From contig MHHQ01000029.1 of the NCBI GenBank assembly GCA_001817065.1, positions 4,049 to 68,048 of the forward strand: a DNA stretch of 64,000 bases, written 5' to 3'. Shown piece after piece: positions 11,321 to 32,120 of this stretch (position 1 is the stretch's first letter; every line of letters starts with the position of its first letter). This stretch comes from Candidatus Andersenbacteria bacterium RIFCSPHIGHO2_02_FULL_46_16 (GTDB lineage Bacteria > Patescibacteriota > Andersenbacteria > UBA10190). A program made the position numbers and the translations under genes. Below the pieces are notes generated by a model. That model was given only the letters and a program-made list of their open reading frames with translations. It was not told the origin of the DNA and did no database searches.

Positions 11321-12568
11321 AAGGACTCTTCCACAATTAACTTCCCCAGATATGGTACAATGTTCTCATGACCATCACCGAGCAGTACGCCACTCTTCAC
11401 CCTCGGCTCAACGAGCTCCAGTGGCGAATATACCTCGGCACCGAAGCGGCCAAGATTGGACGGGGCGGCATTAGCATCGTGGCCAGAGCGTCCGGATCAG
11501 ACCGAAAAACAATCCGCAAAGGACTCGCTGAAGTACGGCAACCGCCTCTCAATGATCGGGTGCGACAGGCTGGTGGAGGACGAAAGAGGTTGGCCGAACA
11601 AGACCCAACCCTGATTGCCGATCTGGAATCGCTAGTGGAGCCGAAGGGTGATCCCATGTCGCTGACCCGGTGGACCACCAAATCGTTGGCCAACCTTGTA
11701 TCCGCGCTAGCCGCCCAAAAACACACCATTAAAAAATCAGCCCTGGCCGAGGTGCTCGCCTCGCTTGGCTTCTCGCTCAAAGCAACCAAGAAAAACATTG
11801 AAGGGTCATCACACCCTGATCGCGACCAGCAATTTTTGCATATTAAAAAGACTTGCCAGACATTTGAGACCAAGCGCGCCCCAATTATCTCCGTGGATTG
11901 TAAGAAAAAAGAATTGATTGGCAATTTTAAAAACAATGGCCGGGAATGGCGGCCAACCGGCAAAAACACGGTGGTGAACGTCTATGATTTTAAAAATCTT
12001 GCTAATGGGAAGGCAGCGCCGTACGGGGTGTATGACGCGATCAAAAACATCGGCTTTGTTAATGTAGGCGTTGATCACGATACTGCGTCATTCGCGGTCG
12101 AATCAATCAGACGGTGGTGGCATGCGGTGGGAAAAACACTCTATGCCGGCACTCGAGAGTTGTTGATTACGTCTGACGGTGGTGGTTCAAACGGCGTCCG
12201 TAACCGGCTGTGGAAAAAAGAATTGCAACAATTTTCAAATGAAACGGGATTGGCTGTGACCGTCACGCACCTGCCGCCGGCCACCAGTAAGTGGAACAAG
12301 ATTGAGCACCGGCTGTTTTCCTACATATCCATTAACTGGCGGGCGCGTCCGCTCATCTCCCTAGAAACAATCATTGAACTCCTCTCTAGCACGACGACAC
12401 AGGCGGGACTCACGGTGACGGCCGTCGTCGACCAGAATCTGTACCCGACCGGCGTGAAAGTATCAGATGCAGACATGAGCCGGCTGAATATATCGCGCCA
12501 CGACTGGCATGGTGATTGGAACTACACCATCAATCCGCAGCTTCTGTAAGTGGGGATGTTAATTGCGG
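11321..12568 (+). mobile_element. ISAzo13-family insertion sequence (about 1.25 kb)
   Basis: Transposase ORF flanked by imperfect inverted repeats of about 22 bp: left CCACAATTAACTTCCCCAGATA at 11321-11342, right reverse complement CCGCAATTAACATCCCCACTTA at 12547-12568. No clear target duplication. Confidence 0.6.
11368..12549 (+). CDS. ISAzo13-family (DDE_Tnp_ISAZ013-type) transposase
   Basis: 393 aa. Family-typical N-terminus (EQYATLHPRLNELQWRIYLGTEAAKIGRGGISIVARASGSDRKTIRKG) and length. Recognised from memory of the family; no search was run. Confidence 0.75.
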   Translation: MTITEQYATLHPRLNELQWRIYLGTEAAKIGRGGISIVARASGSDRKTIRKGLAEVRQPPLNDRVRQAGGGRKRLAEQDPTLIADLESLVEPKGDPMSLTRWTTKSLANLVSALAAQKHTIKKSALAEVLASLGFSLKATKKNIEGSSHPDRDQQFLHIKKTCQTFETKRAPIISVDCKKKELIGNFKNNGREWRPTGKNTVVNVYDFKNLANGKAAPYGVYDAIKNIGFVNVGVDHDTASFAVESIRRWWHAVGKTLYAGTRELLITSDGGGSNGVRNRLWKKELQQFSNETGLAVTVTHLPPATSKWNKIEHRLFSYISINWRARPLISLETIIELLSSTTTQAGLTVTAVVDQNLYPTGVKVSDADMSRLNISRHDWHGDWNYTINPQLL

Positions 12569-12853
12569 ATGGGCCCTAAACGCCCCCCAGTCCTGCTCGT
12601 CATTCACTGTTTCCTTACTTATCACCTTTCCAGACCCATCTAAATGCAATTCTAGCAACGCCCCTTTATATACTACCTTCGCTACTATTTCGCTTTTGGT
12701 GCCCGGTTTAATATCAATAATATTCATCGCTGGATACTTCTGCTGTAAAGACGCACGGGCTGTTTCAAAACTCGTTAACACCGTATTCGCTGCTTTCGTC
12801 GCCGCGGTATCTGTGACTGTTGTTAAGGCTCCCACGTCGTATTTCGTCAACAA
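12530..12853 (-). CDS. PepSY-domain protein, 3' end overlapped by the IS
   Basis: PepSY-like pattern (GTKSEIVAKVVYKGALLELHLDGSGKVISKE). No signal or TM at the annotated N-terminus. The last 20 nt overlap the transposase ORF and the stop lies within the IS right IR, so the gene is possibly disrupted. Confidence 0.45.
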   Translation of the reverse strand: MLTKYDVGALTTVTDTAATKAANTVLTSFETARASLQQKYPAMNIIDIKPGTKSEIVAKVVYKGALLELHLDGSGKVISKETVNDEQDWGAFRAHPQLTSPLTEAAD

Positions 12854-13251: not shown

Positions 13252-14556
13252 TCAAAGCTCAAATTCTTCTGTATAAATATCCCTTTTAGCTACACCCTCT
13301 TGCAATAACTGCATTTTTAAACTAGCCATCATTGGACCAGGTCCACAAATAAAAAACGAGGTTCCCTTTAAGCTGCCGTTAGTCAGCTCCTTGATCTTTT
13401 GCGCTGTCAGATACCCTCGCTCATCTGAAAACCATACAGTTAGTTTTAACTTTCTCATCGCCTCCTTCTCGATTGCGTATAGATCCTCCAACGCAAACAG
13501 CTCACGCTTGTTACGAACGGCAAAAAAAAGATTAATGTCATAGCCATTATTTGTTTCCGCGCGCAGGTCGCGGCTCATCCCCATAAAAGGCGTCATGCCT
13601 ATTCCCCCTCCTACCCAAACCTGTTTCCTGTGCCTGCTCCAACCGAAATTGAATCTGCCATACGGCCCTTGTACCTCCACCGCCGTCCCCGGCTTTAACC
13701 TCGCCAAAGACTGAGAAAAGACTCCTAAATCCTTCACCGTGATCTCTAAATGATCATCGTTTGATGCGGACGAAAATGAAAACGGATGACTCTCAGCTCG
13801 AACTTCCCCATTAATAAATTTGAACCAGCCAAACTGTGCCGACTGATAGCGCATAGCCTCCTGGCCAGCCACCATGACAATCCGCCAGACCGCATCATTT
13901 AACTTTTCTACCCGCTCCACCAGATACCGATATTTCTTATGCGCATTGAAAATCGAATGCCTGACATACAATACCAAAGCTACTGTCGCTAAACCAAAGA
14001 TATATGATCTTAGCCACCAATTTTGTGCGATATCACTTGGTATCAAAAATGCATGCCAGCCACCCAATAAAAAAGCTGCTGCTAAAAATTTATGTGTCAT
14101 TTTCCAAATTTGATATTCCGGCCGTAAATAAAACGTTAGGACCAACAAACTGATCATTACCAGCAGCGCCGCCCAACCTAAAAACAACACTAAGCTTGCC
14201 AACGGCCAAATTATCGCAGCTGCCGCTACCACGGACACTGGCAACACCGCCATCGCGCTAAACAACGGATGGAATAGTAACAAAATTAATGCCGTCCCGC
14301 CTAACCAATGGTGTAATATATATACTCGATTCAATCCGCCAAAATAATTTTCTAGCCAAGCCACTCTGGCACCCAATATCAGGACGAGTGAAAACAACGT
14401 CATGCCGACTAAACCGGACAACTGTGCTAAAGAAACCATGGTCGCTCCAAAGCCGCCAAATCTTACCAACCATGGTAACATGGTTGCCCAAATCATCACC
14501 GGCCATAACGCTAAAACCAATATCGCCAAGGGTCCGATTTTTTGTTTACTTACCAT
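13252..14556 (-). CDS. ferric-reductase-like transmembrane oxidoreductase with FAD/NAD(P)-binding FNR-like domain
   Basis: N-terminal six-TM region with conserved His residues, followed by an FNR-like FAD/NAD-binding module (HPFSFSS, GPYG, VWVGGGIGMTPF). Confidence 0.75.
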   Translation of the reverse strand: MVSKQKIGPLAILVLALWPVMIWATMLPWLVRFGGFGATMVSLAQLSGLVGMTLFSLVLILGARVAWLENYFGGLNRVYILHHWLGGTALILLLFHPLFSAMAVLPVSVVAAAAIIWPLASLVLFLGWAALLVMISLLVLTFYLRPEYQIWKMTHKFLAAAFLLGGWHAFLIPSDIAQNWWLRSYIFGLATVALVLYVRHSIFNAHKKYRYLVERVEKLNDAVWRIVMVAGQEAMRYQSAQFGWFKFINGEVRAESHPFSFSSASNDDHLEITVKDLGVFSQSLARLKPGTAVEVQGPYGRFNFGWSRHRKQVWVGGGIGMTPFMGMSRDLRAETNNGYDINLFFAVRNKRELFALEDLYAIEKEAMRKLKLTVWFSDERGYLTAQKIKELTNGSLKGTSFFICGPGPMMASLKMQLLQEGVAKRDIYTEEFEL

Positions 14557-14653
14557 ATTTATAAGCTCCCTTCACAATAGTGACTCCCCACCTATAAATC
14601 CAGCTGATGATGATTAAAGACAAAAAAGGCCAACACCATGAAAGCAAATATAT

Positions 14654-14917
14654 GGAGCCCCACCCCGCCGCAGGCGGGGCGGTCCCCGCGATAACGTGGC
14701 ATCCCGCCCCCTGGACGGGGTGGCGGAATCCCGCGTAGCAGCCAACTGTCAATCCCACTTGCTCCGCTATCGGCGGAGCTACCCTCCCCCTTGCTCACGG
14801 AGCTTTGAATGGCAGCGAGGGATTGTCCCATTCGCACCTTGTCGACCAAAGCCTTGGCGACGGCTGATTCATCCACCCCCGCCACCGGCGGGATGGTTTT
14901 CTGCGCAGTGGGATAAA
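14654..14917 (+). repeat. GC-rich structured repeat, family 2 copy A
   Basis: About 75% identical to 27124-27315 and 47046-47311. Conserved blocks GGCGGAATCCCGCG, CCTTGGCGACGGCTGATTCA and CTGCGCAGTGGGAT. Confidence 0.7.
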
Positions 14918-15043
14918 TCTACAACCTTTTTGCTAACGCATTCATTTCTTGTATGTATTAATTAATAACCACAGTGCGGTTGATCATCTCGGCTGTGCTT
15001 ATTTACTAATTGCTTCTGCGTGTATTTAATATAAAATTAACCG

Positions 15044-17380
15044 ATGAATGAGATACTGAGCGGCATACAAAAATACGTGCGCTGTGCTAACTACTTAACT
15101 GTTGCTCAGATTTTTTTGCAGGATAATTTCCTGCTGGAACGACCACTCCAACCTGCTGATATCAAACCTCGCCTCCTCGGCCACTGGGGATCATGTCCTG
15201 GCGTCAATTTCACCTACGCGCATTTAAACCACTTAATCAACTCCACAAAAGCCAATTTGTTGTTTGTCTTAGGACCAGGCCACGCGTTTCCGGCCATGCA
15301 AGCCAATTTATTCTTGGAAAACACACTACAGCGCTACTACCCTAAAGCTACTCACACCTCGGATGGCATTGCATATATCTCCAAGAATTTTTCCTGGCCA
15401 TATGGCTTTCCCAGCCACTGCAACCCCGGTACTCCCGGAGTAATTTTAGAGGGTGGTGAACTAGGTTATTCCCTCTCCACTGCTTACGGCGCTATTTTAG
15501 ACAACCCCGACTTAATCGTGGCCTGTCTAATCGGTGACGGCGAAGCCGAAACCGGCCCCATTAACGCCGCCTGGCATTTAAATAAATTCATCAATCCCGC
15601 CACTAACGGCGCAGTCCTTCCTATCCTCCATTTGAATGGTTATAAAATTTCTGGGCCAACCATTTTTGGCCGAATGGATAATCAAGAACTAACTGCGCTC
15701 TTCACCGGCTATGGTTATGAACCGCATATTGTCGAAGGAGATGATATCGACCAAACCATGCAAGACACCTTACAGCAAAGCTACCAAGCCATTCGTCGTC
15801 TCCAAAAATCCGCCCCAAACAATAAACCTAAGTTTCCCATGATTATCCTGAAAACCCTGAAAGGTTGGACCGGCATTAAGGAAATACACGGCAAAAAAAT
15901 CGAGGGTAATCACTTATCTCACCAAGTTGTTCTCAAAGAACCTAAGACTGACCATGAAGAACTCGCTGCCCTTGAAGAATGGCTTAGATCATACAAGTTC
16001 GAGGAATTATTTGATAAGAAATCCGGCTTTTGCACTGCAGTAACAGAGGTAGTCCCAGAGGAAAGTCTCGCCATGGGCAACAACTATCACGCATTTGGCG
16101 GCAAAAAAGTTTTCACACCACTCCAGCTTCCTCCCATTGAGCATTTTGCCGAAGATGCATCTATCCCAGGCACCATTGGTTCCAGCAGCATGCGACGAGC
16201 CGGCCTCTATCTAAATGAAGTTTTTAAACAAAACGAGCCTAACAAAAACTTTCGTTTTTTCTCCCCTGATGAAACCTACTCCAACAAGCTCGATCAAATT
16301 TTTGCTTCGACTGGTCGAGCGTTTGTCTGGCCTAGCGAAAAATGGGATGAAGACATGAGCCCCACTGGCCGCGTAATAGAAATGCTCAGCGAGCACAGCC
16401 TGCAAGGCTTAGCCCAAGGCTATGTTTTGACAGGACGACATGCCATATTTGCCTCGTACGAAGCATTTATTCAGGTCATCATCAGCATGGCCGACCAATA
16501 CGCTAAATTTATCAATGTTGCCCGGGAAATTAAGTGGCGCGGTGATTTTCCTTCTATGAATTACATCCTGACTTCCTCTGGCTGGCGCCAGGAGCATAAT
16601 GGTTTCTCTCATCAAAACCCCGGTTTTATCGACGACATGTTGCAGCGCCAAGGAAATTTTGTAAACGTATTTTTTCCCCCCGATGGCAACACTACCCTAG
16701 TCGCTCTCGATAGAATGCTGCGCTCGACCAAAGAAATAAATATTCTAGTCGCCGGTAAAACATTAGAGCCACGCTGGCTGACCCCCGCCAAGGCGGAGCA
16801 ACAGTTATCACAAGGTGTTATGACTTGGGACTTTGCCAGCGACCCTGATCCCGATATTGTCCTAGCTGCTGCTGGAGATTATTTGACCAAAGAAGCCATG
16901 GCCGCCATTAAAATTATCAAACAAGAAATCCCAGCCGCTAAAATACGCTTCGTGAACATCACCGCTCTCTCCTGCGTCGGACTTGGTCCCAACGACGCTC
17001 CCGTCACTCAAAGTATGTTTGAGGAAACTTTCACTCCCGATAAACCTGTGATCATTAACTTCCACGGCTACCCCCAGACGATCAAGCAAATACTCTTTGA
17101 CTATAGCGACAATAATTCCCGATTCACTGTCCACGGTTATATCGAAAACGGATCCACCACCACTCCCTTTGACATGCAAGTGCTCAATGAAACCAGCCGC
17201 TACCAATTAGCCATGGATGCTTTTACTGCCCTAGCCACCCAAGACGTCATTAGTCCCGCCCGGGCTGCGCAGCTTACCCGAAAATACCTGGATAAATTAT
17301 CTGACCATCATGCCTACATCAAGCAACATGGCACTGACTTACCAGAAATAAGTGATTGGCAATGGACCCAAAATATTTAA
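15044..17380 (+). CDS. xfp: phosphoketolase (xylulose-5-P/fructose-6-P phosphoketolase)
   Basis: 778 aa. TPP-dependent phosphoketolase signatures (GHWGSCPG, EGGELGYSLSTAYGA). Confidence 0.9.
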   Translation: MNEILSGIQKYVRCANYLTVAQIFLQDNFLLERPLQPADIKPRLLGHWGSCPGVNFTYAHLNHLINSTKANLLFVLGPGHAFPAMQANLFLENTLQRYYPKATHTSDGIAYISKNFSWPYGFPSHCNPGTPGVILEGGELGYSLSTAYGAILDNPDLIVACLIGDGEAETGPINAAWHLNKFINPATNGAVLPILHLNGYKISGPTIFGRMDNQELTALFTGYGYEPHIVEGDDIDQTMQDTLQQSYQAIRRLQKSAPNNKPKFPMIILKTLKGWTGIKEIHGKKIEGNHLSHQVVLKEPKTDHEELAALEEWLRSYKFEELFDKKSGFCTAVTEVVPEESLAMGNNYHAFGGKKVFTPLQLPPIEHFAEDASIPGTIGSSSMRRAGLYLNEVFKQNEPNKNFRFFSPDETYSNKLDQIFASTGRAFVWPSEKWDEDMSPTGRVIEMLSEHSLQGLAQGYVLTGRHAIFASYEAFIQVIISMADQYAKFINVAREIKWRGDFPSMNYILTSSGWRQEHNGFSHQNPGFIDDMLQRQGNFVNVFFPPDGNTTLVALDRMLRSTKEINILVAGKTLEPRWLTPAKAEQQLSQGVMTWDFASDPDPDIVLAAAGDYLTKEAMAAIKIIKQEIPAAKIRFVNITALSCVGLGPNDAPVTQSMFEETFTPDKPVIINFHGYPQTIKQILFDYSDNNSRFTVHGYIENGSTTTPFDMQVLNETSRYQLAMDAFTALATQDVISPARAAQLTRKYLDKLSDHHAYIKQHGTDLPEISDWQWTQNI

Positions 17381-18537: not shown

Positions 18538-18670
18538 ACTAAATTCCGCGGCAACGCTCAACAAGTCTTTCCCTCGATTTAACCAATAGCCTAACTACAA
18601 ATCAAAAAACCGCCAAACCAAGTAGCGATTTTATTATCGTTTCATCAATTGTCACAATAAACAGTAGAGT

Positions 18671-18991
18671 TAGGCACCGTCGAAAAATAACTTGGCCAGA
18701 TCTCGTTCAATCTGCGCCGAGATACGGCTTTTCCAATTGCCTGCCGGCCATAGCTTTCTTGACCACCGTAGCCCTGTCTGCCGTCAGGCAAGGTTTAGCG
18801 AAGGTGGTAGCGACGGCTGGAGCGAACCAGGAGCCGTAGCCAAGCTACGGTGAGTGGTTCGCGATTGCCTGCCCCGCGCCGTGCCCATCCGTAGCCTTGC
18901 GCGAAGGAGGGTAGCCTTGGCGTAGTGGGGAGAAAAAATCGTAGATTGCATAGTGGGCGAGAGACGGTTAAGTTATTTTGAGACGGTGACT
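18671..18991 (+). repeat. MITE-like element, family 1 copy 1 (longest, about 320 bp)
   Basis: Terminal inverted repeats (GCACCGTCGAAAAATAACTTGGCCAGATCTCG / CGAGAGACGGTTAAGTTATTTTGAGACGGTGAC). Internal sequence shared with copies at 22260 and 41945. Confidence 0.7.
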
Positions 18992-18998
18992 AAAGCCG

Positions 18999-21900
18999 TT
19001 AACTGTCACGAGCTACCGCCGGCTCAATGTGTAGCAGCGTTGCCTGGCTCACTATGTGATAATGGTCAAGAATTGTACCCGTCGCTTGCATAATGCCTGT
19101 AACCTTCACCGCCGGCAGCCCAAAAACATCATTGATTACGTCTCCCGTCTGGCTAAAAATTCCCTCTGCCCGCATATTTTGCGCTTCCAAAGCACCAATT
19201 ATCATTTCGCCGTTGTTAACTGGCAATTCTCCTTCCGCTAACTGGATATTTCCCTCATTAAAACTGTTAACACCTAAAAATAATTTGGGCACACCCTTGG
19301 TAAAGTTAACCCTGGTTATGCCTTGCGCAATATATTCGCTGATTAGCGCTCTATTTTTCTCCTGTTCAATCACCATAGCACTCGTCTCTATACTGCCTTG
19401 TGCCTGTTCCGCTACTGTTGGTTCACCAACCACTGGGGTTGTCGCTGCCACTTCATTCTTCTCGCTCTCCGCCCCTACTTGCTCAGGCATCCCTGCTTCC
19501 GCAACCAGTTGTTCTTGTGCCGCTATATCTCCGGCCTTACCGGTTGTTTGTTCTGGTTTTTCCATTTGCGTTTCCTCCACTACCAACTCACCTTCCGGCA
19601 TATTCGCTTCCGTATTCAATCCCGCAAACCCCAAAAACAGTCCGGTAAAGACAATAACCATAACCGCCGGCGCCGCCGCTGACATCCAATTCTTTTTGTT
19701 TGGTTTAAATCCGCGCAGGAGTAGCGAATTACCCACCACAGAAATCGAGCTAAAAGCCATGGCTAATCCAGCCAGTTCCGGCCGCAAAACTAATCCGAGA
19801 CCAGCAAATAGTCGCGCTGCCACCGGAATACCAATCACGTTATAAAACAGAGCAAAAAACATATTTTGCTTGATTTTGCTCATTGTTTCTCTTGATAACT
19901 GGATAGTCGTCAGAACATCATTCAAGTCATTCCTAATAATTATTATTTCACCCGTTTCCAAAGCAACGTCTGTTCCTGAACCCATGGCAATACCTAAATC
20001 AGCCTGCGCCAACGCCGGTGCATCATTTATACCATCGCCCACCATCGCGACCATTTTGCCCTGCTCTTGCAACTTCTTCACTTCATTGGCTTTGTCTTCT
20101 GGCAACACTTCTGCCAACACATTCGTCATGCCAATTTCTGCCGCTATCGCCTGCGCCGTGCGTCGGTTATCACCCGTAATCATATAGACCACAATCCCCA
20201 AATCTTTTAGTTTCTGTACCGCCGCCTGAGCGCTGGGTTTAACCGTATCAGCCACCGCGACCAAGCCGATAATACTCCGCCCAGAGGCCAGGATCATGAC
20301 CGTCTGTCCCCTATTCTCTAGTCGCGTCATGTCTTCTTCTATATCAGCCACATTCAATCCGGCTGCGACAATCAAATGACGGTTACCAAAATAATATTTT
20401 TTTCCAGCCATAGTACCCACAACGCCCTGGCCCGGTACCGGTGCAAAATCTGCTACCTCCAAGAAATCACTTTTCTGGTCCTGGGCATACTGGTAAATTG
20501 CTTCCGCTAAAGGATGCTCGGATGAACGTTCCAATGAGCCAGCTAACTGTAGCAGTGTTGCATCATCTGCTGCTTGGTAGTTAATGAGCGCTGTCACCGT
20601 AGGCTTTCCATTCGTTAGAGTTCCTGTCTTATCGAACACTATCGCATTAATTTTTCTCACCTTTTCCAGCGGTTCACCACCTTTAATCAGAATACCGTGC
20701 TCCGCCCCTTTACCTGTGCTGACCATAATAGCGGTTGGCGTTGCCAAACCAAGCGCGCAAGGACAAGCGATCACGATGACCGCCGTAAAAGCCATCAAAG
20801 AAAAAGCCAAGGTAGCCCCCAGCACGAAATACCACACTACAAATGTGGTGATAGCAATTACGATAACCGCCGGCACAAACCAGGCTGAAATGCGATCCGC
20901 CAACGCCTGCACTGGCGCCCTCGACCCCTGCGCATCTTCAATCAATTTAATAATCTGTGCCAACATTGTTTCCCCGCCCACTTTAGTTGCCTCAAGCTCA
21001 AAACTGCCATTCTTGTTCATAGTAGAACCGATGACTGTATCCCCTGGGTGTTTTTCCACTGGCAGACTTTCGCCAGTTATCATCGCCTCATCCACCGCCG
21101 ATGATCCGCTAGTAATCACACCATCTACTGGAACAATTTCTCCCGGCCGCACAATCACCGTATCTCCTACTACTACTTGCTCAATCGGCAAGTCCACTGT
21201 TTGATCGCCTCGCACCACTCGCGCCGTCTTAGCCTGTAAGCCCATTAGCTTCTTAATGGCTTCCGAAGTTCGCCCTTTCGCCTTGGATTCTAAGTATTTC
21301 CCCAACAATACGAAGGTTATTAAGAAAGCTGCAGTTTCAAAGTATAGGTCAGGTATCATTTTTCCCGCCTCGGCAATAAACGAGCCAGCATTTAGCACAT
21401 ACGCGCCAAAATTGTAGAGGCTGTAAAAGTAAGCCGTTGAAGTGCCAATCGCAATCAAGCTATCCATATTAAATGTTTTCATCCGCAAACTAGACCATGC
21501 GCCCGCATAAAAACCTGCCCCGATTACAAACTGCACTGGTGTCGCCAGAATAAAGGAAACCAATCCCGCATAGGGCAGAATAAAACTCGTTCCCGGCAGC
21601 CACTTAAAGAATGTCTGCAGCATAAAATACAGCATCGGCAGACTCAGCAGCAGTGCATAAAAAAACTTTTTCTTTAACCGTGCGATCTCTTTAGCTTTCT
21701 TTTCCTCGACCTGTTTAGCATCCCCCTGATCAACCGGCATTGCTTCATAACCTGCCTTTTTCACTGCTGTTATTAAATCGTTCACCGAGACCGTGGCCGG
21801 ATTAAAGACTACCGACGCCTTCTCGACAGCAAAATTTACGTTTGCTTCCAACACACCCGGCCGCTTCTTTAATGACCGCTCAATAATCGCCGCGCAGGAC

Positions 21901-22241
21901 GAACAATGCATACCGGATATTAACAAGGACGCACGCGTCTTACTTGCCACTTCTGGTTTAACTAGCTTGGCAGCTTCCTCTTTGGGGAATAAAAGCTTTG
22001 CACTCGTTCCTCTCTCACTCATGTCACCCATTACAGTCGCTTGATATCCCTCTTTGCTTATGACCGTAATAATCTGCTCCGGCGAGATCGAACTGTCATC
22101 ATACTCAATAACGGCATTTTTTTTCTGATAGCTTATCTCCGCCTTACTCACACCTCTTAATTCCTGAACAGCTTCTTTTATTAACAGCTCACACGATCCG
22201 CAGTGCATGCCATTAATGTTTAGCCTTATTTTCTTTGTCAT
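18999..22241 (-). CDS. copA: Cu(I)-translocating P1B-type ATPase with two N-terminal HMA domains and a C-terminal extension of about 250 aa
   Basis: Two GMHCxxC HMA domains. CPC transmembrane motif, [15 protein letters not shown]. An extra TM plus acidic linker plus globular domain follow the normal ATPase end. Confidence 0.9.
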
Positions 22242-22259
22242 TATAATTTTTTGCTAATT

Positions 22260-22441
22260 TAGGCGCCGTAAATAAATAACTTGGCCAGATCTCGTTCAAT
22301 CTGCGCCGAGATACGGCTTTTTCGATTGAGCGAAATACGAAGCGTAATAGAACTACGGTGAGTGTTTCGCGATTGAGAAAAAGTCGCAGATTGGTGCATA
22401 GTGGACGAGAGGTGGTTAAGTTATTTATTTACGGTGCCTTA
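22260..22441 (+). repeat. MITE-like element, family 1 copy 2 (about 182 bp, internal deletion)
   Basis: TIRs TAGGCGCCGTAAATAAATAACTT and AAGTTATTTATTTACGGTGCCTTA. Flanked by GCTAATT on both sides, which looks like a 7-bp target duplication. Fills the whole copZ–copA intergenic region. Confidence 0.7.
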
Positions 22442-22639
22442 GGCTAATTGATAAGGCGTATCAGCCAATGCTTGCTTGATCACATCAGGCTTAAACTCCT
22501 GGTCAGCCACTATTATAGTCTGGCCATCCACCTTAACATCTACATCCTGTACGTTAGGTAAACGTCGTAAACGCTTTTGCACCATTTTAACGCAAGCTTC
22601 ACAGGTCAAACCTGTTAATTGAATGTTTTGTGTAATCAT
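22439..22639 (-). CDS. copZ: copper chaperone CopZ (single HMA domain)
   Basis: 66 aa with GLTCEACV metal-binding loop. Stop codon abuts or overlaps the MITE end. Confidence 0.8.
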   Translation of the reverse strand: MITQNIQLTGLTCEACVKMVQKRLRRLPNVQDVDVKVDGQTIIVADQEFKPDVIKQALADTPYQLA

Positions 22640-22659
22640 AGAATTTATTAGGATTATAT

Positions 22660-22684
22660 ATACCTACACCTATGGTATAGGTAA
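22660..22684. promoter_or_regulatory. candidate CsoR operator (ATACCTAcacctatggtaTAGGTAac)
   Basis: Inverted TACCTA...TAGGTA arms immediately upstream of copZ. Resembles the known CsoR operator pattern (ATACC...GGTAT). Confidence 0.4.
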
Positions 22685-22709
22685 CGAACAGATCAGTCAA
22701 TAAATACTT

Positions 22710-24524
22710 TTATATCTCATTGACGACGATATTGCCGCGAGGTACGCCCATCGCACACGTGATCGGGTATGAACCGGCCTTCTTTGGTGTGAATTCAAAG
22801 GTTATCTTCTGACCGCGCCGAAAATTCTGTACATCTTCAGTCAGTCCAGGAACAGTAATGCTCCCCATACAACCAGAACCATTGTCCTTCGCATCAATCT
22901 CGAAACGAACGGGTTGATTTGCTCTTACCGTAAACTGGTTAGGCGATAAATCCGCTTTCCTCGTATAAGCAGCTTGTATAACCTGCACCTCATCTTGACT
23001 TATAGTCTCGCCTTTGGCCGGCTCAGCTTTATTAGCTCCTCCGCCACAACCGCCACAACCGCCGCCCGCGCCGCCGCAAGAACCTTTGGCCGCAGCCGGT
23101 TGATCAACGGGCTGGTCAAGTGCTATAGCTCTACCACGTGCCTCTGCCCCGTCTTTGTCTATGACATTAAATACACCGGTATACATACCCATAGCACAGG
23201 AAAAACGTATTTGCCCCGTTTCTTTCGGGGTAAATTCAATGACGTTCTCCCCTAACTGCAAATTACGCCGCACTCCTAGTTGCTGCGAATAAAGACTTCC
23301 GGCGCAACTGTTCGGATTAGTTGAATTCACAATCCATTTGACCGGAACACCTGCCTGAATTGTAAATTTGTTAGGACTATAACCACTGCCAGACTGCTCC
23401 ATCCGTACTACCTGGACGTCCTTATTATCACTTCCTTCCTGTTGAACCTCTGCTATCTGTCCTGCTCCCTGGGCCACCGTTGATAGAATTACCGGTAGAC
23501 CAGTTAAGTTTAAGCCATTCGAGATGTTAAACACCGCTAAACCAACCACCGCGAGCCCCGCCAACTTAAAGAAACGCTGCGCCATAATTCCACGTAAGGC
23601 AGAAGTAAGTCCACCCACACCCAACAATCCCGGTGTTGTACCTACCGCAAACGTCGCCATAATCAGTGCCCCCGACCAAAAGTTGCCCGTACTCATCGCG
23701 TACAATTGCATTGCTTGTGTGAAACCGCACGGCAGGAAAAAAGTCAAAACACCAACCATCGCCGCATTACGATGACTATACTCCCTTTCGTGCTTTTGTT
23801 TAATTCCCAATTTCTTACTCAAACCAGCCGGCAAAGAAATAGCCCAGCTGGATAAGCGAGGTGAAAGTTGCGTGAGCTGGATCCCTAACAGCAGCATCAC
23901 TAAGCCCACACCAATAGTTAATGCCCCAAGCAGAGTACCGGATAGTTGGAATGCCTGCCCAATTAAACCAATTAATCCGCCCAGCACAAAATATCCCGCT
24001 ATACGCCCTGCGTTAAAAAATATATGCGGACGGAATTTCTGCACCGTTGTTGCTTCTGGATGTGACTGAGCATGTTTGGCTGACATACCAAGTACCAAAC
24101 CACCCACCAAAGCCATGCAAGTAGACACCCCGGCCAGCAATCCCACCGTCAGCACAACCAATAAACTGGCCGGACTATCGCCTGGATTAAAACTGGCATT
24201 AAGAATGCCCATGCCTTTTAGCACAAAGTACAAGATTAACAGAATTCCGGCCGCTAATGCTATTTCGTCGTACTGTTTCTTGTCTGGTGTAACCCATGGC
24301 AGCGCCCCCGAATGACCCACACTATAACCAGCCTCCTTAACTGCTTCCTCCACCTTTGCCATACTTAGCCCCCCCCGGTAAGTAATTTCCGCTTCTTGCC
24401 GTCGCCGGCTGACTGACACAGTCTGCACGCCTGGCAGCTCTTTCAATTGTTCTTCTATTAATAGTTCGCATGAGGCGCAATGCATGCCTCGAATCGGTAT
24501 AGTTTTTTTATTCATGATCCTCAA
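22710..24524 (-). CDS. HMA domain – polytopic Cys-motif membrane domain – Gly/Cys linker – two cupredoxin-like domains (putative metal transporter/sequestration protein)
   Basis: N-terminal GMHCASC HMA. About eight TM helices with VSTCMA and FLPCGF motifs (DsbD_2/TauE-like). A GSCGGAGGGCGGCGGGA linker. Two C-terminal beta-rich domains with CxGS...CAMG pairs resembling Cupredoxin_1. Confidence 0.55.
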   Translation of the reverse strand: MRIMNKKTIPIRGMHCASCELLIEEQLKELPGVQTVSVSRRRQEAEITYRGGLSMAKVEEAVKEAGYSVGHSGALPWVTPDKKQYDEIALAAGILLILYFVLKGMGILNASFNPGDSPASLLVVLTVGLLAGVSTCMALVGGLVLGMSAKHAQSHPEATTVQKFRPHIFFNAGRIAGYFVLGGLIGLIGQAFQLSGTLLGALTIGVGLVMLLLGIQLTQLSPRLSSWAISLPAGLSKKLGIKQKHEREYSHRNAAMVGVLTFFLPCGFTQAMQLYAMSTGNFWSGALIMATFAVGTTPGLLGVGGLTSALRGIMAQRFFKLAGLAVVGLAVFNISNGLNLTGLPVILSTVAQGAGQIAEVQQEGSDNKDVQVVRMEQSGSGYSPNKFTIQAGVPVKWIVNSTNPNSCAGSLYSQQLGVRRNLQLGENVIEFTPKETGQIRFSCAMGMYTGVFNVIDKDGAEARGRAIALDQPVDQPAAAKGSCGGAGGGCGGCGGGANKAEPAKGETISQDEVQVIQAAYTRKADLSPNQFTVRANQPVRFEIDAKDNGSGCMGSITVPGLTEDVQNFRRGQKITFEFTPKKAGSYPITCAMGVPRGNIVVNEI

Positions 24525-24612
24525 TATTTGTTATTAAATCTTAAACCTGCTGTATTCTGAACGGTTATTCTATCACCTAACCATTCAGGTACCCCCTACA
24601 CCAGAGAAAAAT

Positions 24613-24990
24613 TTAATGAACGCGAGGATGTAATATGCCCTGCTGTAACGCTACTAGGATATAATTTTGGGGCAATAGCCAAGGATTATATGGCCAAAAA
24701 AGAGCAGCAGGCAAACGAGAACGCAACAGGTCTTGTAGATAGCTAGTTTTTGTGAACATAACCGTTAACCACCATGCCATCAGGCCTAAAAACACGGCTA
24801 AGTAATCCGGGGACGTCACCTGCAAACTACTTATTAAACTCTCAATCAAGCAAGGACTGTTACCCAAACTAGCATGCACCCACATATGACCAAAAGTCAC
24901 ACTGCAGGCTATCGGCCCAATCACCAACACACCCAACAAGAGCCAAGCTGTAATTTTTATTGATTTTCCAAAAACCATATTCATGAACAT
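24613..24990 (-). CDS. hypothetical small membrane protein
   Basis: ORF with three hydrophobic segments, inside the metal operon. Confidence 0.3.
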   Translation of the reverse strand: MFMNMVFGKSIKITAWLLLGVLVIGPIACSVTFGHMWVHASLGNSPCLIESLISSLQVTSPDYLAVFLGLMAWWLTVMFTKTSYLQDLLRSRLPAALFWPYNPWLLPQNYILVALQQGILHPRVH

Positions 24991-25027
24991 TGTGTTATTA
25001 TACCCTACCTGCCCCTACAGATAAACA

Positions 25028-25300
25028 TTACGACTTCACCCAGCGTCTATATAAAGCAACCACTGCGTACGTCCATATCCAAACTACAGCCATACTGGAA
25101 ATAAGTCCTATTAACAATGTACTGGAAGAAAATTCCTCGACGACTCCCGGTGAAACGTTAAACGTATGAAACCAACTTTGCACAATCGTGAAAAGCCAGC
25201 CTGGAACCAACCAGGAGAGTACACGACACACCACATAACCTACCCCCATCACCACCGCCATAGCATTCGCTGCCACCTTACTGTTAACCATAATTCTCAC
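25028..25300 (-). CDS. hypothetical small membrane protein
   Basis: ORF with 4-nt overlap (ATGA) with the upstream gene. Two TM segments. Confidence 0.3.
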   Translation of the reverse strand: MRIMVNSKVAANAMAVVMGVGYVVCRVLSWLVPGWLFTIVQSWFHTFNVSPGVVEEFSSSTLLIGLISSMAVVWIWTYAVVALYRRWVKS

Positions 25301-26148
25301 CTCCTATCATATACTAACCAGCGAACTAACCGGTAAACAACATAAATAAGTAGAACATAAAATATTCCGTTTATTATTGGCCATCGATCAGTCCATCCAG
25401 TCACCAGCCAAGCTGTATCGTTAACTATTTGAGCCGGTCCAGTCGGCATACTTAAGCGACCCGTAATCGCTAAACCCAACGTTATTAAACCCAAACTAAA
25501 GAACATAATAGCGGAAACCAAATTAGTGATAAACACCGGATAGTATCTGCCATCTAAATTAATAGAAAATATCCGCTTATTAAATATTGGCTTTTCTAAC
25601 AGATGAACGCGTTTGATAACTAAACCAGCTATGTACAATGGTGCTACCATACCAGCTACAAAAGCTAAGCCGACCAAAAATGCGTGCCATAAACTCGGCG
25701 ATAATGAACTTAAGGCCAAAACACCAATTAAAACTGGTGCGCAACACGCAGCCGTTATTCCAGCCGTTAGCCCTAATACATAGGTTGACAACCAGTCCAT
25801 CTCGCCACCTGCTTTTGCTGGTAAGTGAGGCATTGGGAGCTTCACACCAACCAACGACAAGATAGCCGCAGCCATCATAATAGATCCGCCGACAATATAC
25901 GTTTCAGTGTGCCAGCGAAAGAAAAAGCTGGCTAATACTTTGGCGCCCAGCACAATCGGCAGCATGACAGTAAAAATCCCCGTCGAATAAACACCTGTCA
26001 TCAGTAAGATTTTCCTTTTTTCCTTAAAGACATTCCCGAGGTACGCCGGTAAGAGGTATGAGATACAACACGGTGCAAACAAAGCGACTAGACCAGCAAC
26101 AAAAGCCGCGAGCAGTGACACTTGGTAGAAAACGTCTCCACTGCTCAT
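25297..26148 (-). CDS. CcdA/DsbD_2-like membrane protein with two CC motifs
   Basis: FAPCCISYLLP and AACCAPV within TM helices. Six to eight TM segments. Confidence 0.5.
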   Translation of the reverse strand: MSSGDVFYQVSLLAAFVAGLVALFAPCCISYLLPAYLGNVFKEKRKILLMTGVYSTGIFTVMLPIVLGAKVLASFFFRWHTETYIVGGSIMMAAAILSLVGVKLPMPHLPAKAGGEMDWLSTYVLGLTAGITAACCAPVLIGVLALSSLSPSLWHAFLVGLAFVAGMVAPLYIAGLVIKRVHLLEKPIFNKRIFSINLDGRYYPVFITNLVSAIMFFSLGLITLGLAITGRLSMPTGPAQIVNDTAWLVTGWTDRWPIINGIFYVLLIYVVYRLVRWLVYDRR

Positions 26149-26153
26149 ATACT

Positions 26154-26648
26154 CTACTGGACTACGTTAGCTGACATAGTAAGCACGATTTTTGGTTGGC
26201 GTGGATCGTTGGTCCTCATCATCGCCTGCCGTGTCACAGACCCTAGACCATTCGGACCATGAAAAGCTGGATCAAAAATAAGCTTAATAGTGGCAGCTTC
26301 ACCCGGCGGGACATTAGCCACATATGATGATCGTTCACCCATCCTAAACTCAGGCGAGATAACACTGCCCATTTCAACCTGCGCGACTGTACACATGCAC
26401 GAGGTTGTCACGTCGTATAATGCCAACGGGTCAGACCCTGTGTTACTGATTAGAAAATCAGTTATTAATAAGCCTTCATTAATACCAACGTCACCTCTTT
26501 CCTTAGTTGTTTCTGTCACAGACGCACTCACCTTCTGGCTCATCTTGACGCCAGTAGGAGTACTTAGCCTAGCAGCTAAATAAAGTCCGCCCACTATTAG
26601 TGCCACCATTCCAACCAATATACCAACTGTTAATCTGTTATTGCTCAT
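26154..26648 (-). CDS. membrane-anchored DUF1573-domain protein
   Basis: N-terminal TM. C-terminal pattern DFLISNTGSDPL...SCMCT...PGEAATIKLIFDP, typical of DUF1573. Confidence 0.55.
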   Translation of the reverse strand: MSNNRLTVGILVGMVALIVGGLYLAARLSTPTGVKMSQKVSASVTETTKERGDVGINEGLLITDFLISNTGSDPLALYDVTTSCMCTVAQVEMGSVISPEFRMGERSSYVANVPPGEAATIKLIFDPAFHGPNGLGSVTRQAMMRTNDPRQPKIVLTMSANVVQ

Positions 26649-26676
26649 TTAACTCTCCTCCTTAAAGTGACGATGG

Positions 26677-26949
26677 CTATTTATTAACCATCTTCGACAC
26701 TTTCAAGATTTCCTCAATCATCTCCTGTTGTTTTTTTTCCTGGCTAGTCATCATCGCATGGCTAAAACAGCTTTTCAAATGATCCTCCATCAACATTTGA
26801 TGGGCTGATTTTAATAAACCTAACACAGCCAAGTTTTGCTGCATTATATCTATGCAATATTTATCCGCTTCCAACATACCGACAATAGTAGCCAGATGCG
26901 ACTGGGCCTTTTTAAAGTTAGTGGATATTTTCTCGTGATTTGCTTTCAT
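26677..26949 (-). CDS. csoR: CsoR/RcnR-family metal-sensing transcriptional repressor
   Basis: 90 aa, helical, with the conserved C...H...C triad positions (CIDIMQQ...H...C). Confidence 0.7.
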   Translation of the reverse strand: MKANHEKISTNFKKAQSHLATIVGMLEADKYCIDIMQQNLAVLGLLKSAHQMLMEDHLKSCFSHAMMTSQEKKQQEMIEEILKVSKMVNK

Positions 26950-26974
26950 AATAATATAATTTAATATCTAGACC

Positions 26975-26993
26975 TTACCTATAGGTTAGGTAA
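26975..26993. promoter_or_regulatory. candidate CsoR operator (TTACCTATAGGTTAGGTAA)
   Basis: TACCTA-N5-TAGGTA inverted repeat 26 nt upstream of the csoR start. The same half-sites occur upstream of copZ. Confidence 0.4.
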
Positions 26994-27123
26994 AACTATA
27001 TTAGCACATAACCCCTATACAGAACAAGCCGCATAAATTCTCGTTCGATGGTTTCCTGCACTGACCTCCCTCACCAGTAATCTTTTGCCTCCTCAGCACC
27101 TGCTGCTACCGGAACCGCTACAG

Positions 27124-27315
27124 GAAGCCCCATCCCGCCCCCTGGACGGGATGGCAGAATCCCGCGTAACAACCAACTGTCTGCCCCACTTGCTCCGCTA
27201 TCGGCAAAGCTACGCGGGGTTATCCCATTCGCACCTTGTCAGCCAAAGCCTTGGCGACGGCTGATTCAATCACCCCCACCACCGGCGGGGTGGCTTTCTG
27301 CGCAGTGGGATAAAA
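27124..27315 (+). repeat. GC-rich structured repeat, family 2 copy B (shortest)
   Basis: Shares blocks with copies A and C. Lacks one internal hairpin segment of about 45 nt and part of the 5' region. Confidence 0.7.
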
Positions 27316-27430
27316 AGGAGACCACATCGTGATCTCCTGAAGCTCACATTTGATATCGCAAGGTGAGTTATACCTGCGCTCCTATTGCCCATATCCTATC
27401 TGGACTTGGAGAAAGAACCTGGCATTTACT

Positions 27431-28033
27431 TTACTCCTTCTCTATCTGTTGATGTTGATAAAGACAAAAGAAGGAAAACGGTCTTTGTCGGTCACAAAGA
27501 CCCTCACTGTTACCTGTCTGGTAAAGGGGGCACTCACTACCACCGACCGTAATCTCTGAAGCGAACTTCTGTGGATTGCGAATCCGTAGACCCACACCAA
27601 TCTCGGAAAAATTTGAGTGGTGAAGCTCAATATCTCCGAAACCACAACCACCTTCCTCCCAGAAAGAAGTAATGATTGCAGCACAATCATCACCCGAAAG
27701 TTCCTCGTCACCAATCGCATACCAGAGGTATTGAGGAACTTCTCCCCTATATACCTGCCGCACAAACTCCTCCTTGCCCTCCGGGTCACGCCAGTCTTTT
27801 CCGGTCAGTAAGTGCTGCGCGTTTTTGACACGCTGTCGCCACTCCTGTTTTGCCTCTTTGATCCACACCAGCGTACTAGCCATTTTAGCTTCGAACTCCT
27901 TGCGCTCCTCTCTAACCTTTACTCTCCTTGCTGACCATGTCCAAAACGAACCAAATAATGCCAGTGCCCTCATTGTTAATCCTTTCTCTCCTAAAATTCC
28001 CTCGCCCTTCGCAAAAAAACTACACATTCCCAA
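27431..28033 (-). CDS. hypothetical protein
   Basis: 200-aa ORF with no recognisable domain. Confidence 0.3.
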   Translation of the reverse strand: MGMCSFFAKGEGILGEKGLTMRALALFGSFWTWSARRVKVREERKEFEAKMASTLVWIKEAKQEWRQRVKNAQHLLTGKDWRDPEGKEEFVRQVYRGEVPQYLWYAIGDEELSGDDCAAIITSFWEEGGCGFGDIELHHSNFSEIGVGLRIRNPQKFASEITVGGSECPLYQTGNSEGLCDRQRPFSFFCLYQHQQIEKE

Positions 28034-28356
28034 TCATCAGCAAACAACATCCTTTGGATGCCTATTGCTAATGTTCTTTTGTTGTCAAAGTCCGATCCAA
28101 ATCTGAAATTTGAACTCTTCAAGGCTAAGATTAGGACGGAACTCTCAAGAAGATTGATAAATCACTCAATATTCTATTCTTTAATGTGATACATGTCAAG
28201 TACTCCATGTGTATAAAAGCTAAACATAGCTGTTATATTCACATTCAGGTATCCACTACCCTAGATATTAGCTTTTAAAAAAGGCTACTAAAATCCAGCA
28301 ACCCCTGTTTCTACCGGTCAAAACGCCCGGCCACTCCTATCTGACCTGCGCGAAAG

Positions 28357-28824
28357 CTATCGTGTAATTATGGCCATATTTCTTACTGCATTTGGGGCAA
28401 TAAGCATAGTGGAAATAATCTTTTTACCGTCTTTCCTTTTCCCGCCACATACATATCCATATCCTTTAATCCATTTTGGTACCGCGCTATATGGCCCATC
28501 ATACACTTTGCTTAAAAATTCCCCCGTAATCTTAGCCATTTTCTCCCCCGGCACATCTTTGCTAATAGTCATATATATTTCTGACCGCCATGGCGACGAA
28601 TTATAGCTAAGCATCAAAAAATCTTTCCCTTCCGGCATAGCCTTAGCATGCTCAATCTTTTTGAACATACGTTTTACTACCTTCCCCATGTTTACGGGTA
28701 TATGAAAGATTTGCCGCACATCATCCCGTAAAAATAACTTATCCCGCCAAAGATACCGCTGCTTCTCGAACCTCGTCGGATCAAATTCCGGGCAACAGAC
28801 ATCTGACTCTGTCATACATTTCAT
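28357..28824 (-). CDS. hypothetical protein (Cys-containing, 155 aa)
   Basis: ORF with no recognisable domain. Confidence 0.3.
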   Translation of the reverse strand: MKCMTESDVCCPEFDPTRFEKQRYLWRDKLFLRDDVRQIFHIPVNMGKVVKRMFKKIEHAKAMPEGKDFLMLSYNSSPWRSEIYMTISKDVPGEKMAKITGEFLSKVYDGPYSAVPKWIKGYGYVCGGKRKDGKKIISTMLIAPNAVRNMAIITR

Positions 28825-28886
28825 TATATCTCAAAACTAAGGAGCATTCTAAACAAGTCCCCATTAATATTCCCTGGCCGCTAATC

Positions 28887-30380: not shown

Positions 30381-30503
30381 GGTTTTGTCACGGGGCCCCG
30401 TACTAGTTCAATGCCTTCTAAACACCCTGCCGCTGGCAACCGCTCACCGATTAAGTCAAACCGCGTCTTTCCCTTCGCTTCCCGCCGCCAATAATTACCT
30501 GGC

Positions 30504-30827
30504 CTACTCCAAGGATGCTGGTACTTCCCTTAAACTTGATTTCTCACAAGGCTCTTCCCAGGGTCTCAGGCATTTATTTTTTTCTGCACACCAAGAGTAC
30601 CCCGCCCCAATCATGCATCCATATTCATCCTTGTTACCGCCAATCAGTTCTTGCGTCGGTTTCGGATCAGCCTGCACACTCACTGACTTGCCATATTTAA
30701 CCCCAAAGTAAAACCCGATAAACGATAAGGCTACCGCTAACACCATCGCGACTATCTTTGAGAAAAGCGTCACCGTCGTCAACTCTTTCTTAATATCCAT
30801 TAATCCCATTAAAGCACGCCCGCTCAA
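30504..30827 (-). CDS. hypothetical membrane-anchored Cys-rich small protein
   Basis: One TM. C-terminal region CMIGAGYSWCAEKNKCLRPWEEPC. Confidence 0.3.
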   Translation of the reverse strand: MSGRALMGLMDIKKELTTVTLFSKIVAMVLAVALSFIGFYFGVKYGKSVSVQADPKPTQELIGGNKDEYGCMIGAGYSWCAEKNKCLRPWEEPCEKSSLREVPASLE

Positions 30828-30939
30828 TTTCGTCAGCTGTGACTGTCAGCATTCTCAAGATTGACAAATTTTATAGATTTTGTACATTACCCTTTCAGTA
30901 CTTTACCCAACACTAACGTCGCTATAAAAGATTGGAGGA

Positions 30940-31290
30940 TTGCCCATGGCCAATTCGCATCAAGTAACCGATGTACCGAATGGGATTAAGCAAGTTTTTG
31001 GTGCCAGAACCGGCCACTACCTAACCGACGAACCTGGCCGACTGGAGTTTGTGCCTGTTTGGGCTGTAAATGAAGGAAAGATAATTTGCGACGCAGCTTT
31101 CACTTGGAAGCAACCTGTCAGAGGATTTGCCTCAAAGGATTCATATTTCGGACTGACCGTGTCACCCGATGCCACCTTCTTTGTCTACTTCAACGATGCG
31201 ACTTACTTCGTCCTCTGCTCTAAAACTGCGAATACCGATCATTTAATCATGAGGATCAAGACCGAACTTCGCGCGGCCAACGAACATTAA
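30940..31290 (+). CDS. hypothetical protein
   Basis: ORF followed by a strong terminator. Confidence 0.35.
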   Translation: MPMANSHQVTDVPNGIKQVFGARTGHYLTDEPGRLEFVPVWAVNEGKIICDAAFTWKQPVRGFASKDSYFGLTVSPDATFFVYFNDATYFVLCSKTANTDHLIMRIKTELRAANEH

Positions 31291-31316
31291 ATCCTGCCCA
31301 CCTAGTAGCATCACCT

Positions 31317-31346
31317 CACCACCGCTTTTACCAACGGTGGTTTTTT
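31317..31346 (+). terminator. rho-independent terminator
   Basis: CACCACCGCTTTTACCAACGGTGG followed by TTTTTT. Confidence 0.6.
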
Positions 31347-31458
31347 CTAACCATACTTATTTACCGCCGACCTGCTCGCCTTCTCTTGACTTCCCTGTCC
31401 GCCTGTTCTACATATTAATTTCTCGTTTGCCTGAACAGTTTTTACCAGGAGCACCCTC

Positions 31459-31977: not shown

Positions 31978-32120
31978 TATCAACCCACAGAGTTACCCCT
32001 CGGTTTTTTTATCGCAGCAAAAATCCCTAGCCATGGCGGTACAAAAAGCGCGGTCAAGCCCAACCACATCGCCCACCACGCCAACTTTGTCTTAGGTTTT
32101 TCTTGAATATAAACCCAAGT

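Follow-up and report, generated by a model that had tools for sequence, protein, structure and literature searches.

Nine distinct copies of a GC-rich repeat, referred to here as family 2, were found in one organism of the Rifle aquifer, three of them in the window, i.e. the whole stretch of 64,000 nucleotides that was analysed. Each copy is made up of four to six GC-rich palindromes and a few conserved unpaired blocks, the family does not code for protein, its copies are dispersed over unrelated intergenic sites, and it is absent from the relatives examined. We hold, with moderate confidence, that family 2 is a lineage-restricted, non-autonomous interspersed repeat resembling REP, BOX and PATE elements, possibly moved as hairpinned single-stranded DNA, and now old and decaying. 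Thus, it looks like a new repeat family of a familiar kind, and like decaying selfish DNA rather than a conserved RNA gene. The first-pass annotation had left the choice between a non-coding RNA and a non-autonomous element. The second option fits, while the first has so far gained no support, as there was no Rfam match and no promoter-like site, the predicted folds were equal on both strands and the covariation was weak.

Family 2 copies in the window

To begin with, a profile built from the three copies matched the window only at 14650-14919, 27122-27316 and 47041-47313, always on the plus strand (E = 1e-62 to 1e-87), in agreement with the three repeats of one orientation described in the first-pass annotation. 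Moreover, the 21-mer GCCTTGGCGACGGCTGATTCA had three exact occurrences in the window compared to 0.00 expected, and CTGCGCAGTGGGAT was also found three times. The mean column identity across the three copies (A, B and C) was 75%, inside the claimed range of 70-80%, and copies A and B were 87-90% identical over the blocks common to both. Their G+C content, which had been given as about 60% in a genome of about 45%, was 65.5%, 60.9% and 57.9%, respectively, vs. 44.6% for the window. The three copies were indeed intergenic, since the open reading frames overlapping them were spurious and inconsistent in frame, while those flanking them had clear Pfam identities. The quoted conserved blocks and hairpins were found as described, except that the hairpin CCCCGCCgcagGCGGGG was restricted to copy A among the window copies. 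Furthermore, the boundaries of the copies were amended to TATGGAG at the 5′ end (14651 in A and 47041 in C) and GGGATAAA at the 3′ end (14917, 27314 and 47310).

Copy A (14651-14917, plus strand) is a full-length element of 267 nt with both of the optional modules described below, and is located between two divergent genes, a ferric-reductase-like gene (13252-14556, minus strand) and an XFP phosphoketolase gene (15044-17380, plus strand). Copy B (27121-27314, plus strand) is the shortest form (~194 nt), with neither optional module and with a degenerate 5′ end, ACAGGAAG instead of TATGGAG. On one side it is bordered by the stop of a 200-aa open reading frame and on the other by the start of a csoR-like gene (26677-26949), both on the minus strand, and its end is abutted by the T-run (…TCTCCT TTTTATCCCA) of an intrinsic-terminator-like hairpin belonging to the upstream minus-strand gene (27316-27338, minus strand). 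Copy C (47041-47310, plus strand), full-length with 270 nt and the most diverged of the three, is placed within a convergent gene pair, between the stop codon (46995-46997) of the gene of a 599-aa membrane protein and a common terminator, a bidirectional terminator-like hairpin serving both convergent genes (47333-47364).

Census and distribution of the copies

The six remaining copies appeared on other contigs of the same organism. Four of them (L006a, L006b, L005 and L004) came from a metagenome scan with a conserved 20-mer, and a profile of the plus-strand open reading frames of the element led to one additional protein, P0016. The contig of this protein belongs to the assembly that includes the window and contains copies D and E, which point in opposite directions and are separated by 5.6 kb. 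Identity among the copies ranged from 72 to 90%, and none of them was recent. The number of nine is a lower bound, as the metagenome scan passed over contig Ga0209343_10010014, a known carrier of copy A; likewise, the scan of the genome collection returned none of the four assemblies with exact matches. The genome visible to the analysis amounted to ~200 kb, and ~12 kb of extra sequence beyond the window ends contained no further copy. Regarding other organisms, the 20-mer, which was exact in seven of the nine copies, gave no true copy in ~185,000 readable GTDB species genomes (one chance match), only chance matches in viral contigs, and no match in phages and plasmids.

Candidatus Andersenbacteria, a lineage of the CPR/Parcubacteria, was first named in PMC5079060. 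Exact matches to the window proteins were present in Rifle aquifer metagenomes and in the assemblies GCA_001817145.1 (MHHU01000002.1), GCA_001817135.1, GCA_001817175.1 and GCA_003501005.1, and these proteins are labelled 'Candidatus Andersenbacteria bacterium RIFCSP...' in the source entries. More than 40 strain contigs from many samples were essentially identical, which indicates a clonal population, and all of them had the copies, with no insertion polymorphism and no empty site; the copies are therefore fixed in this population. A 286-nt insertion seen in the strain contig L030 was a scaffold gap of Ns and held no element.

The gene order around copy C (GT2, membrane protein of 579-599 aa, protein of ~205 aa and polysaccharide-synthesis protein) was kept in relatives. 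In one of them, with 56% amino-acid identity, the spacer orthologous to that of copy C presented a bare 72-nt terminator hairpin and no element, and in another, with 62% identity, no similarity to the element was found in the 179 nt examined after the stop codon of the gene. No family 2 copy occurred in ~45 kb of sequence from relatives. In yet another relative (L028, 4218-4987), the same spacer harboured an unrelated insert of ~770 nt with a 92-aa open reading frame, which suggests that this site was struck independently by different insertions.

Anatomy of the element

Family 2 elements extend from 5′-TATGGAG to GTGGGATAAA-3′ over 194-275 nt in the nine copies, some of which begin with TATGAAG or TATAGAG. 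Beyond these ends, the flanks were unrelated among copies. No terminal inverted repeats (TIRs) were found, as the ends TATGGAGCC... and ...GTGGGATAAA are not complementary and the palindromes are subterminal only; those of the CCATCCCG...CGGGATGG type lie 9-21 nt from each end. Target-site duplications (TSDs) were also missing, with no direct repeat in the flanks of all nine copies compared.

The palindromes appear as a string that includes CATCCCG...CGGGATG, GCTCCGC-TATCG-GCGGAGC, a hairpin inside CCTTGTCGRCCAAAGCCTTGGCGACGGCTG and CCCGCC-ACC-GGCGGG followed by TTTT. In the coordinates of copy A, an optional 5′ module (14663-14701) with the palindrome CCCCGCC-GCAG-GCGGGG represents a tandem copy, now diverged, of the hairpin that follows, CATCCCG-(loop)-CGGGGTG (14700-14722), whose 3′ arm can alternatively pair with a downstream ATCCCG (14728-14733). 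The hairpin GCTCCGC-TATCG-GCGGAGC (14761-14779) is the best-kept local stem, with 95.8% of cells paired over the nine copies, and is followed by an optional internal module (14782-14815, 34 nt in A) that bears a hairpin of the GCTCC...GGAGC type with the same stem sequence. The most conserved block, CCTTGTCGACCAAAGCCTTGGCGACGGCTGATTCA (14837-14871), offers two mutually exclusive short helices, and its core 10-mers recur inside an unrelated MITE family (family 1). The 3′ GC-rich hairpin (14873-14900), with the CCCGCC-ACC-GGCGGG core and then TTTT, is terminator-like on the plus strand and shows a compensatory C-G to T-A change in one copy, L006a. Finally, the terminal block CTGCGCAGTGGGATAAA occupies 14901-14917, and the 3′ GTGGGATAA has two alternative upstream partners, AATCCCGC or TTATCCCAT. 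The motif ATCCC/GGGAT is repeated 6-8 times per element, so that several mutually exclusive pairings are possible. Overall, conservation was best in the internal block and poorest at the plus-strand 5′ end.

The 5′ module was present in A, C, L006a and L004 and absent from B, L006b, L005, D and E, the internal module was absent from B, L004 and E, and all four combinations of presence and absence were observed among the nine copies. In particular, the internal hairpin reported as lost from copy B corresponds to the 34-nt module at 14782-14815 of A, and copy B additionally lacks the 39-nt 5′ module (14663-14701 in A). Modular stem loss is thus a correct description, and the duplication and deletion of palindromes in DNA explains it equally well. 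In fact, the hairpin of each optional module has the same stem sequence as the adjacent hairpin, so the modules resemble diverged tandem duplications that were gained or lost.

Folding, covariation and substitution bias

Compared to dinucleotide shuffles, single copies gave mean fold z-scores of −2.6 (plus strand) and −2.4 (minus strand), and in copy C the excess stability was almost gone (−0.2 and −1.2, respectively). The equality of both strands and the loss in copy C are evidence, as far as predicted folds can tell, for palindromic DNA rather than a strand-specific RNA. The consensus folds had 91-92% of their cells paired on either strand.

Regarding covariation, 3 double-change pairs were counted in the plus-strand structure vs. 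1.0 in shuffles (32 of 500 shuffles reached 3, with nine sequences), and 8 in the minus-strand structure vs. 3.0 expected (1 of 500 shuffles), where the covariation score was 0.137 vs. 0.108. It should be noted that these figures come from nine sequences, with structures taken from the same alignment, and that the double changes arise mostly in one diverged copy. The minus-strand double changes may hint at some structural constraint, and they count against a purely selfish-DNA reading of the family. Two indicators of the strand were discarded, namely the fold z-scores, for being equal on both strands, and the ratio of G-U to A-C pairs, because mutation bias itself turns C-G into U-G on the G-rich strand.

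As for the substitutions relative to the consensus, G>A changes exceeded C>T changes by 37 to 24 (~0.6 vs. 0.3 per site) in the eight copies that agree with the GC skew, and the proportion was reversed (2 vs. 4) in the inverted copy D. Since the substitutions follow the local strand bias, the copies have aged in place under replication-linked mutation bias.

Orientation and gene context

The GC skew of the window was very strong (−0.2 to −0.35 per kb, plus strand), and similarly strong on most contigs of the relatives. Eight of the nine copies agreed in orientation with the skew (p ~0.04, confounded with gene orientation), and copy D broke the rule. All copies were confined to intergenic spacers (three divergent, three convergent and three tandem), often just 3′ of a gene end or a terminator. 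In the three tandem contexts (B, D and L005), the G-rich strand of the element, i.e. the minus strand in the window, was always sense to the flanking genes; as this includes copy D, discordant with the skew, orientation may follow transcription and not replication. Along the G-rich strand, the T-run of an intrinsic terminator immediately precedes B and L005, C starts 25 nt after a terminator, and the minus-sense 5′ end is found 31-115 nt downstream of the stop codon of a co-directional gene in six of the nine copies. Furthermore, the first five bases of that strand, preceding CCCAC, were TTTAT in seven copies, TTGAT in one and TTCAT in one. This pentanucleotide could be a conserved end of the element or a T-rich target like those of IS200/IS605.

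A probable non-autonomous repeat and its alternatives

Nine dispersed copies with sharp common ends, in unrelated contexts, with no open reading frame, absent from the orthologous site in relatives and with no true copy in the other species genomes readable by the scan, fit a non-autonomous element. Family 2 would have been spread by an enzyme acting in trans and would now be in decay. Transposition of single-stranded DNA guided by hairpins, as in the IS200/IS605-PATE or REP systems, would be the most likely route, as suggested by the lack of TIRs and TSDs together with similar palindromes near both ends, by the orientation of eight of the nine copies along the skew, and by the IS200-family enzyme encoded in the genome. 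Insertion would take place 3′ of a T-rich site (TTTAT in the reading of the G-rich strand). Any influence on the host would be secondary and exerted by the hairpins, whether in the DNA or in RNA made by read-through, for instance through termination or transcript stabilisation. The genome hosts comparable elements (a MITE family with TIRs, an ISAzo13 element and a genuine IS200 tnpA), and neither a mobilising enzyme nor a parent element of family 2 was found in ~200 kb of it. A transposon is expected to keep its ends, and thus the internal position of the best-conserved block and the poor conservation of the plus-strand 5′ end count against this reading. Moreover, none of the more than 40 strain contigs offered an empty site that would prove the insertion.

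A functional structured RNA transcribed from the G-rich strand (minus in the window) is possible, albeit doubtful on balance. Such an RNA would be a 3′-UTR or intergenic operon element, or a family of sRNAs, whose copies arose by duplication or mobility and were retained for a role in RNA stability, termination or regulation. It would account for a GC-rich element in an AT-richer genome, for the ATCCC/GGGAT segments with their mutually exclusive pairings, for the minus-sense 5′ ends downstream of co-directional stop codons, and for the sense orientation in the tandem contexts. However, three out of three in the latter amounts to a one-sided p of only 0.125, and in B, C and L005 the upstream gene is separated from the element by a terminator. 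In the same way, the excess of minus-strand double changes speaks for an RNA, but it is owed mostly to one diverged copy, the fold excess of the minus strand is no better than that of the plus strand and is gone in copy C, and the minus-strand G-U pairs are expected from the C>T mutation bias. A known RNA family was looked for with Rfam 15, as the first-pass annotation had proposed, and nothing in the whole window matched at the gathering thresholds. Permissive scans of each copy (E up to 10) gave unrelated weak matches only, with nothing consistent; the best was to the ilvB-OMG RNA (RF02919), with 19.6 bits vs. a gathering threshold of 95.9, in copy A only. Consensus scans for promoters found no sigma-70-like site, and one terminator-like hairpin was located inside the element on the plus strand. 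Likewise, ARAGORN detected no tRNA or tmRNA gene in the 64-kb window. Finally, the family was not found outside one lineage. The RNA and the selfish-repeat readings do not exclude each other, given that REP, BOX and ERIC repeats are also transcribed.

A combination of both, in which family 2 would be the protein-less end of a hairpin-guided single-stranded DNA transposon from which a structured RNA is still produced (a guide like omega or reRNA, or else a regulatory 3′-UTR RNA of the G-rich strand), is considered unlikely. If true, it would represent an RNA-producing mobile element in a reduced CPR genome, alongside an uncharacterised Y1/HUH partner.

A site acting at the DNA level and oriented with replication, such as an array on which a nucleoid or replication protein binds ATCCC/GGGAT, is decidedly unlikely. 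The 6-8 motifs per element, the strand-symmetric structure potential and the single orientation of eight of the nine copies relative to the skew would suit it; nevertheless, the latter proportion reaches only p ~0.04 and cannot be separated from the effect of gene orientation, the inverted copy shows no decay, and the element is absent from the examined relatives despite a similarly strong skew on most of their contigs. To our knowledge, there is no class of oriented sites of 200-270 bp of this kind.

It is very unlikely that family 2 is an orphan guide-RNA gene (an omega RNA or reRNA of IscB/TnpB, or a bridge RNA of the IS110 type) on a protein-less transposon end, with the flank acting as the guide. 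The length of 200-270 nt, the high structure, the sharp boundary to unique flanks and the lack of TIRs and TSDs reproduce the layout of an IS200/IS605 end, and there is an IS200-family transposase in the genome. However, HEARO and the other Rfam models gave no match even at E up to 10, no TnpB, IscB or IS110 gene was annotated by Pfam in ~200 kb of genome, and the end that would adjoin the guide in the TnpB type is the least conserved part of the element. Likewise, a bridge RNA whose target loop is fixed would be at odds with flanks that have no target in common.

Four further candidates were set aside from the anatomy alone, i.e. the repeat of a diversity-generating retroelement (the copies being intergenic), an integron attC site (copies kilobases apart and with no core sites), a group II intron remnant (no Rfam match and none of the characteristic intron termini) and a retron RNA (no reverse transcriptase seen nearby).

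Lastly, the fragments of a degraded protein-coding gene, which the first-pass annotation had also considered, are hardly credible: GC-rich sequence leaves long open frames, such that open reading frames of 77-169 aa are annotated on some copies and one frame of L004 spans by chance from the 5′ ATG to the 3′ TAA, but different copies are open in different frames, every frame is disrupted by indels of 1, 4 and 34 nt, and a single-sequence search with the minus-strand open reading frame plus a profile search against 5.8 billion protein clusters retrieved the element's own open reading frames only, with no protein homologues. Copies of family 2 carry annotated 'hypothetical proteins' of 77-169 aa (L009 and L013, 2549-2842; L036, 10001-10234; L048, 3453-3962; and others). 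These calls, on various strands and in various frames, are almost certainly false genes.

Comparison with known repeat systems

Among known systems, family 2 is similar to PATEs, which derive from IS200/IS605, in being small and protein-less, in having no TIR or TSD, and in palindromes of similar sequence close to each end. The presence of an IS200 transposase in the same genome, likewise just after a terminator T-run, is a further point of likeness. The apparent strand bias with respect to replication, confounded as it is with gene orientation, and the T-rich pentanucleotide (TTTAT, TTGAT or TTCAT) before one end, which may be target or element sequence, could be others. In contrast, no autonomous element with family 2 ends was found in ~200 kb, where the hairpins of the single IS200 encountered were unrelated, the ends of family 2 are not its best-conserved parts, the copies are old and diverged, and the pairing rule between guide tetranucleotide and cleavage site was not recognised. 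Thus, family 2 corresponds only to the structural half of the definition of a PATE.

Family 2 shares with the REP and BIME sequences of enterobacteria and Pseudomonas the GC-rich extragenic palindromes, the mosaic of modules and the location downstream of genes or between operons, with GTAG/CTAC beside the stems in some cases. However, REP units are 20-40 nt long, whereas family 2 is a fixed composite of 195-275 nt that includes long conserved stretches without palindromes. A RAYT was likewise not found, as the Y1 protein scored 20.8 bits vs. a cut-off of 80 for the REP_Tyr_transpos model. BOX elements of Streptococcus pneumoniae (boxA-boxB(n)-boxC), ERIC/IRU and Correia/NEMIS are also intergenic, of 100-300 nt, with optional or repeated internal modules, stable predicted folds, restriction to a lineage and no clearly established mobiliser; their sequences are unrelated to family 2, and they bear TIRs, or ends that are inversely complementary, in most cases together with a TA duplication, while family 2 has neither.

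As classical MITEs, family 2 is short, non-coding, multi-copy and dispersed, but it differs from them in lacking both TIRs and TSDs. The family 1 MITE of the same genome coincides with it in size range, intergenic location and modular internal deletions; unlike family 2, it has TIRs of ~21-35 bp (GGCACCGTAAATAAATAACTT...), and no longer stretch of one family resembles the other. Finally, the GC-rich intergenic structured non-coding RNAs in Rfam are comparable for being GC-rich in an AT-richer genome and for their multiple stems, some of them optional. Family 2 departs from these in being multi-copy within one lineage, with strand-symmetric folds and with its structure lost in the most diverged copy.

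Repeats and mobile elements in a reduced genome

The genomes of CPR bacteria are very small and gene-dense. The literature searched contained no account of interspersed repeats in the Candidatus Andersenbacteria lineage. In the window, two unrelated repeat families with three copies each were found in 64 kb, which suggests that selfish repeats persist even in CPR genomes. At present, family 2 is an ordinary type of element, and it is the host that is unusual: alongside an ISAzo13 element and an IS200, this reduced CPR genome has two or more repeat families. In practice, the family gives rise to spurious 'hypothetical proteins' in annotation, and assemblies are likely to break at it. Should an enzyme that mobilises it, or a transcript, come to light, the family would offer access to DNA mobility or to regulation at the RNA level in an uncultured lineage.

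Family 1 was located at 18670-18991, 22259-22441 and 41946-42185 in the window and at 4975-5246 in L006, with modular internal deletions, and its TIR (GGCACCGTAAATAAATAACTT...) had five matches vs. 0 expected. In L006, the family 1 copy is 178 nt away from a family 2 copy. Two 10-mers were restricted to both families, on the same strand, namely GCGACGGCTG (five occurrences vs. 0.08 expected) and AGCCTTGGCG (three vs. 0.11), at window positions 14857-14866, 18810-18819, 27254-27263, 42065-42074 and 47251-47260, and also at 14850, 18913 and 27247. Beyond these two 10-mers, the families had no similarity. The shared 10-mers may be a common hairpin module or a protein-binding site. In a relative, a related motif, AGCCTTTGGCGAAGGCTGG, recurs within an intergenic element of high G+C content (L025, 8190-8345).

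The ISAzo13-family insertion sequence (window 11322-12577) encodes a DDE transposase of 393 aa (11368-12549), which is single-copy, and has imperfect inverted repeats of 27 nt. These inverted repeats were tried as relatives of family 2 and matched neither repeat family. The IS200 (L036, 19090-19700; GCA_003501005.1, DNQH01000019.1) contains a gene (19153-19605) for a TnpA of 150 aa, placed 9 kb from copy D and identified by the NCBIfam IS200 equivalog model with 117 bits; in two other assemblies (L035 and L037), the gene was called with only 86 aa. The hairpin CTACGGGC-TTAC-GCCCGTAG is present at both ends of the IS200, the right one overlapping the stop codon, and the insertion lies directly after a terminator T-run, as in copies B and L005. 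A link between family 2 and the neighbouring IS200 was rejected, given the different end hairpins of the latter and the lack of sequence similarity.

Regarding the remaining gene content of the window, a copper/heavy-metal cluster (18999-34349) has both repeat families in its spacers. It comprises a P-type ATPase of 1080 aa with HMA, an HMA-DsbD-cupredoxin fusion (22710-24524), a csoR-like repressor (26677-26949) and another P-type ATPase (32121-34349). The GC skew was strong over positions 1-51000, with genes on both strands, and close to zero in a glycosyltransferase/methyltransferase cluster at 52-64 kb, where the G+C content was 30-42%. This cluster may be a recently acquired island.
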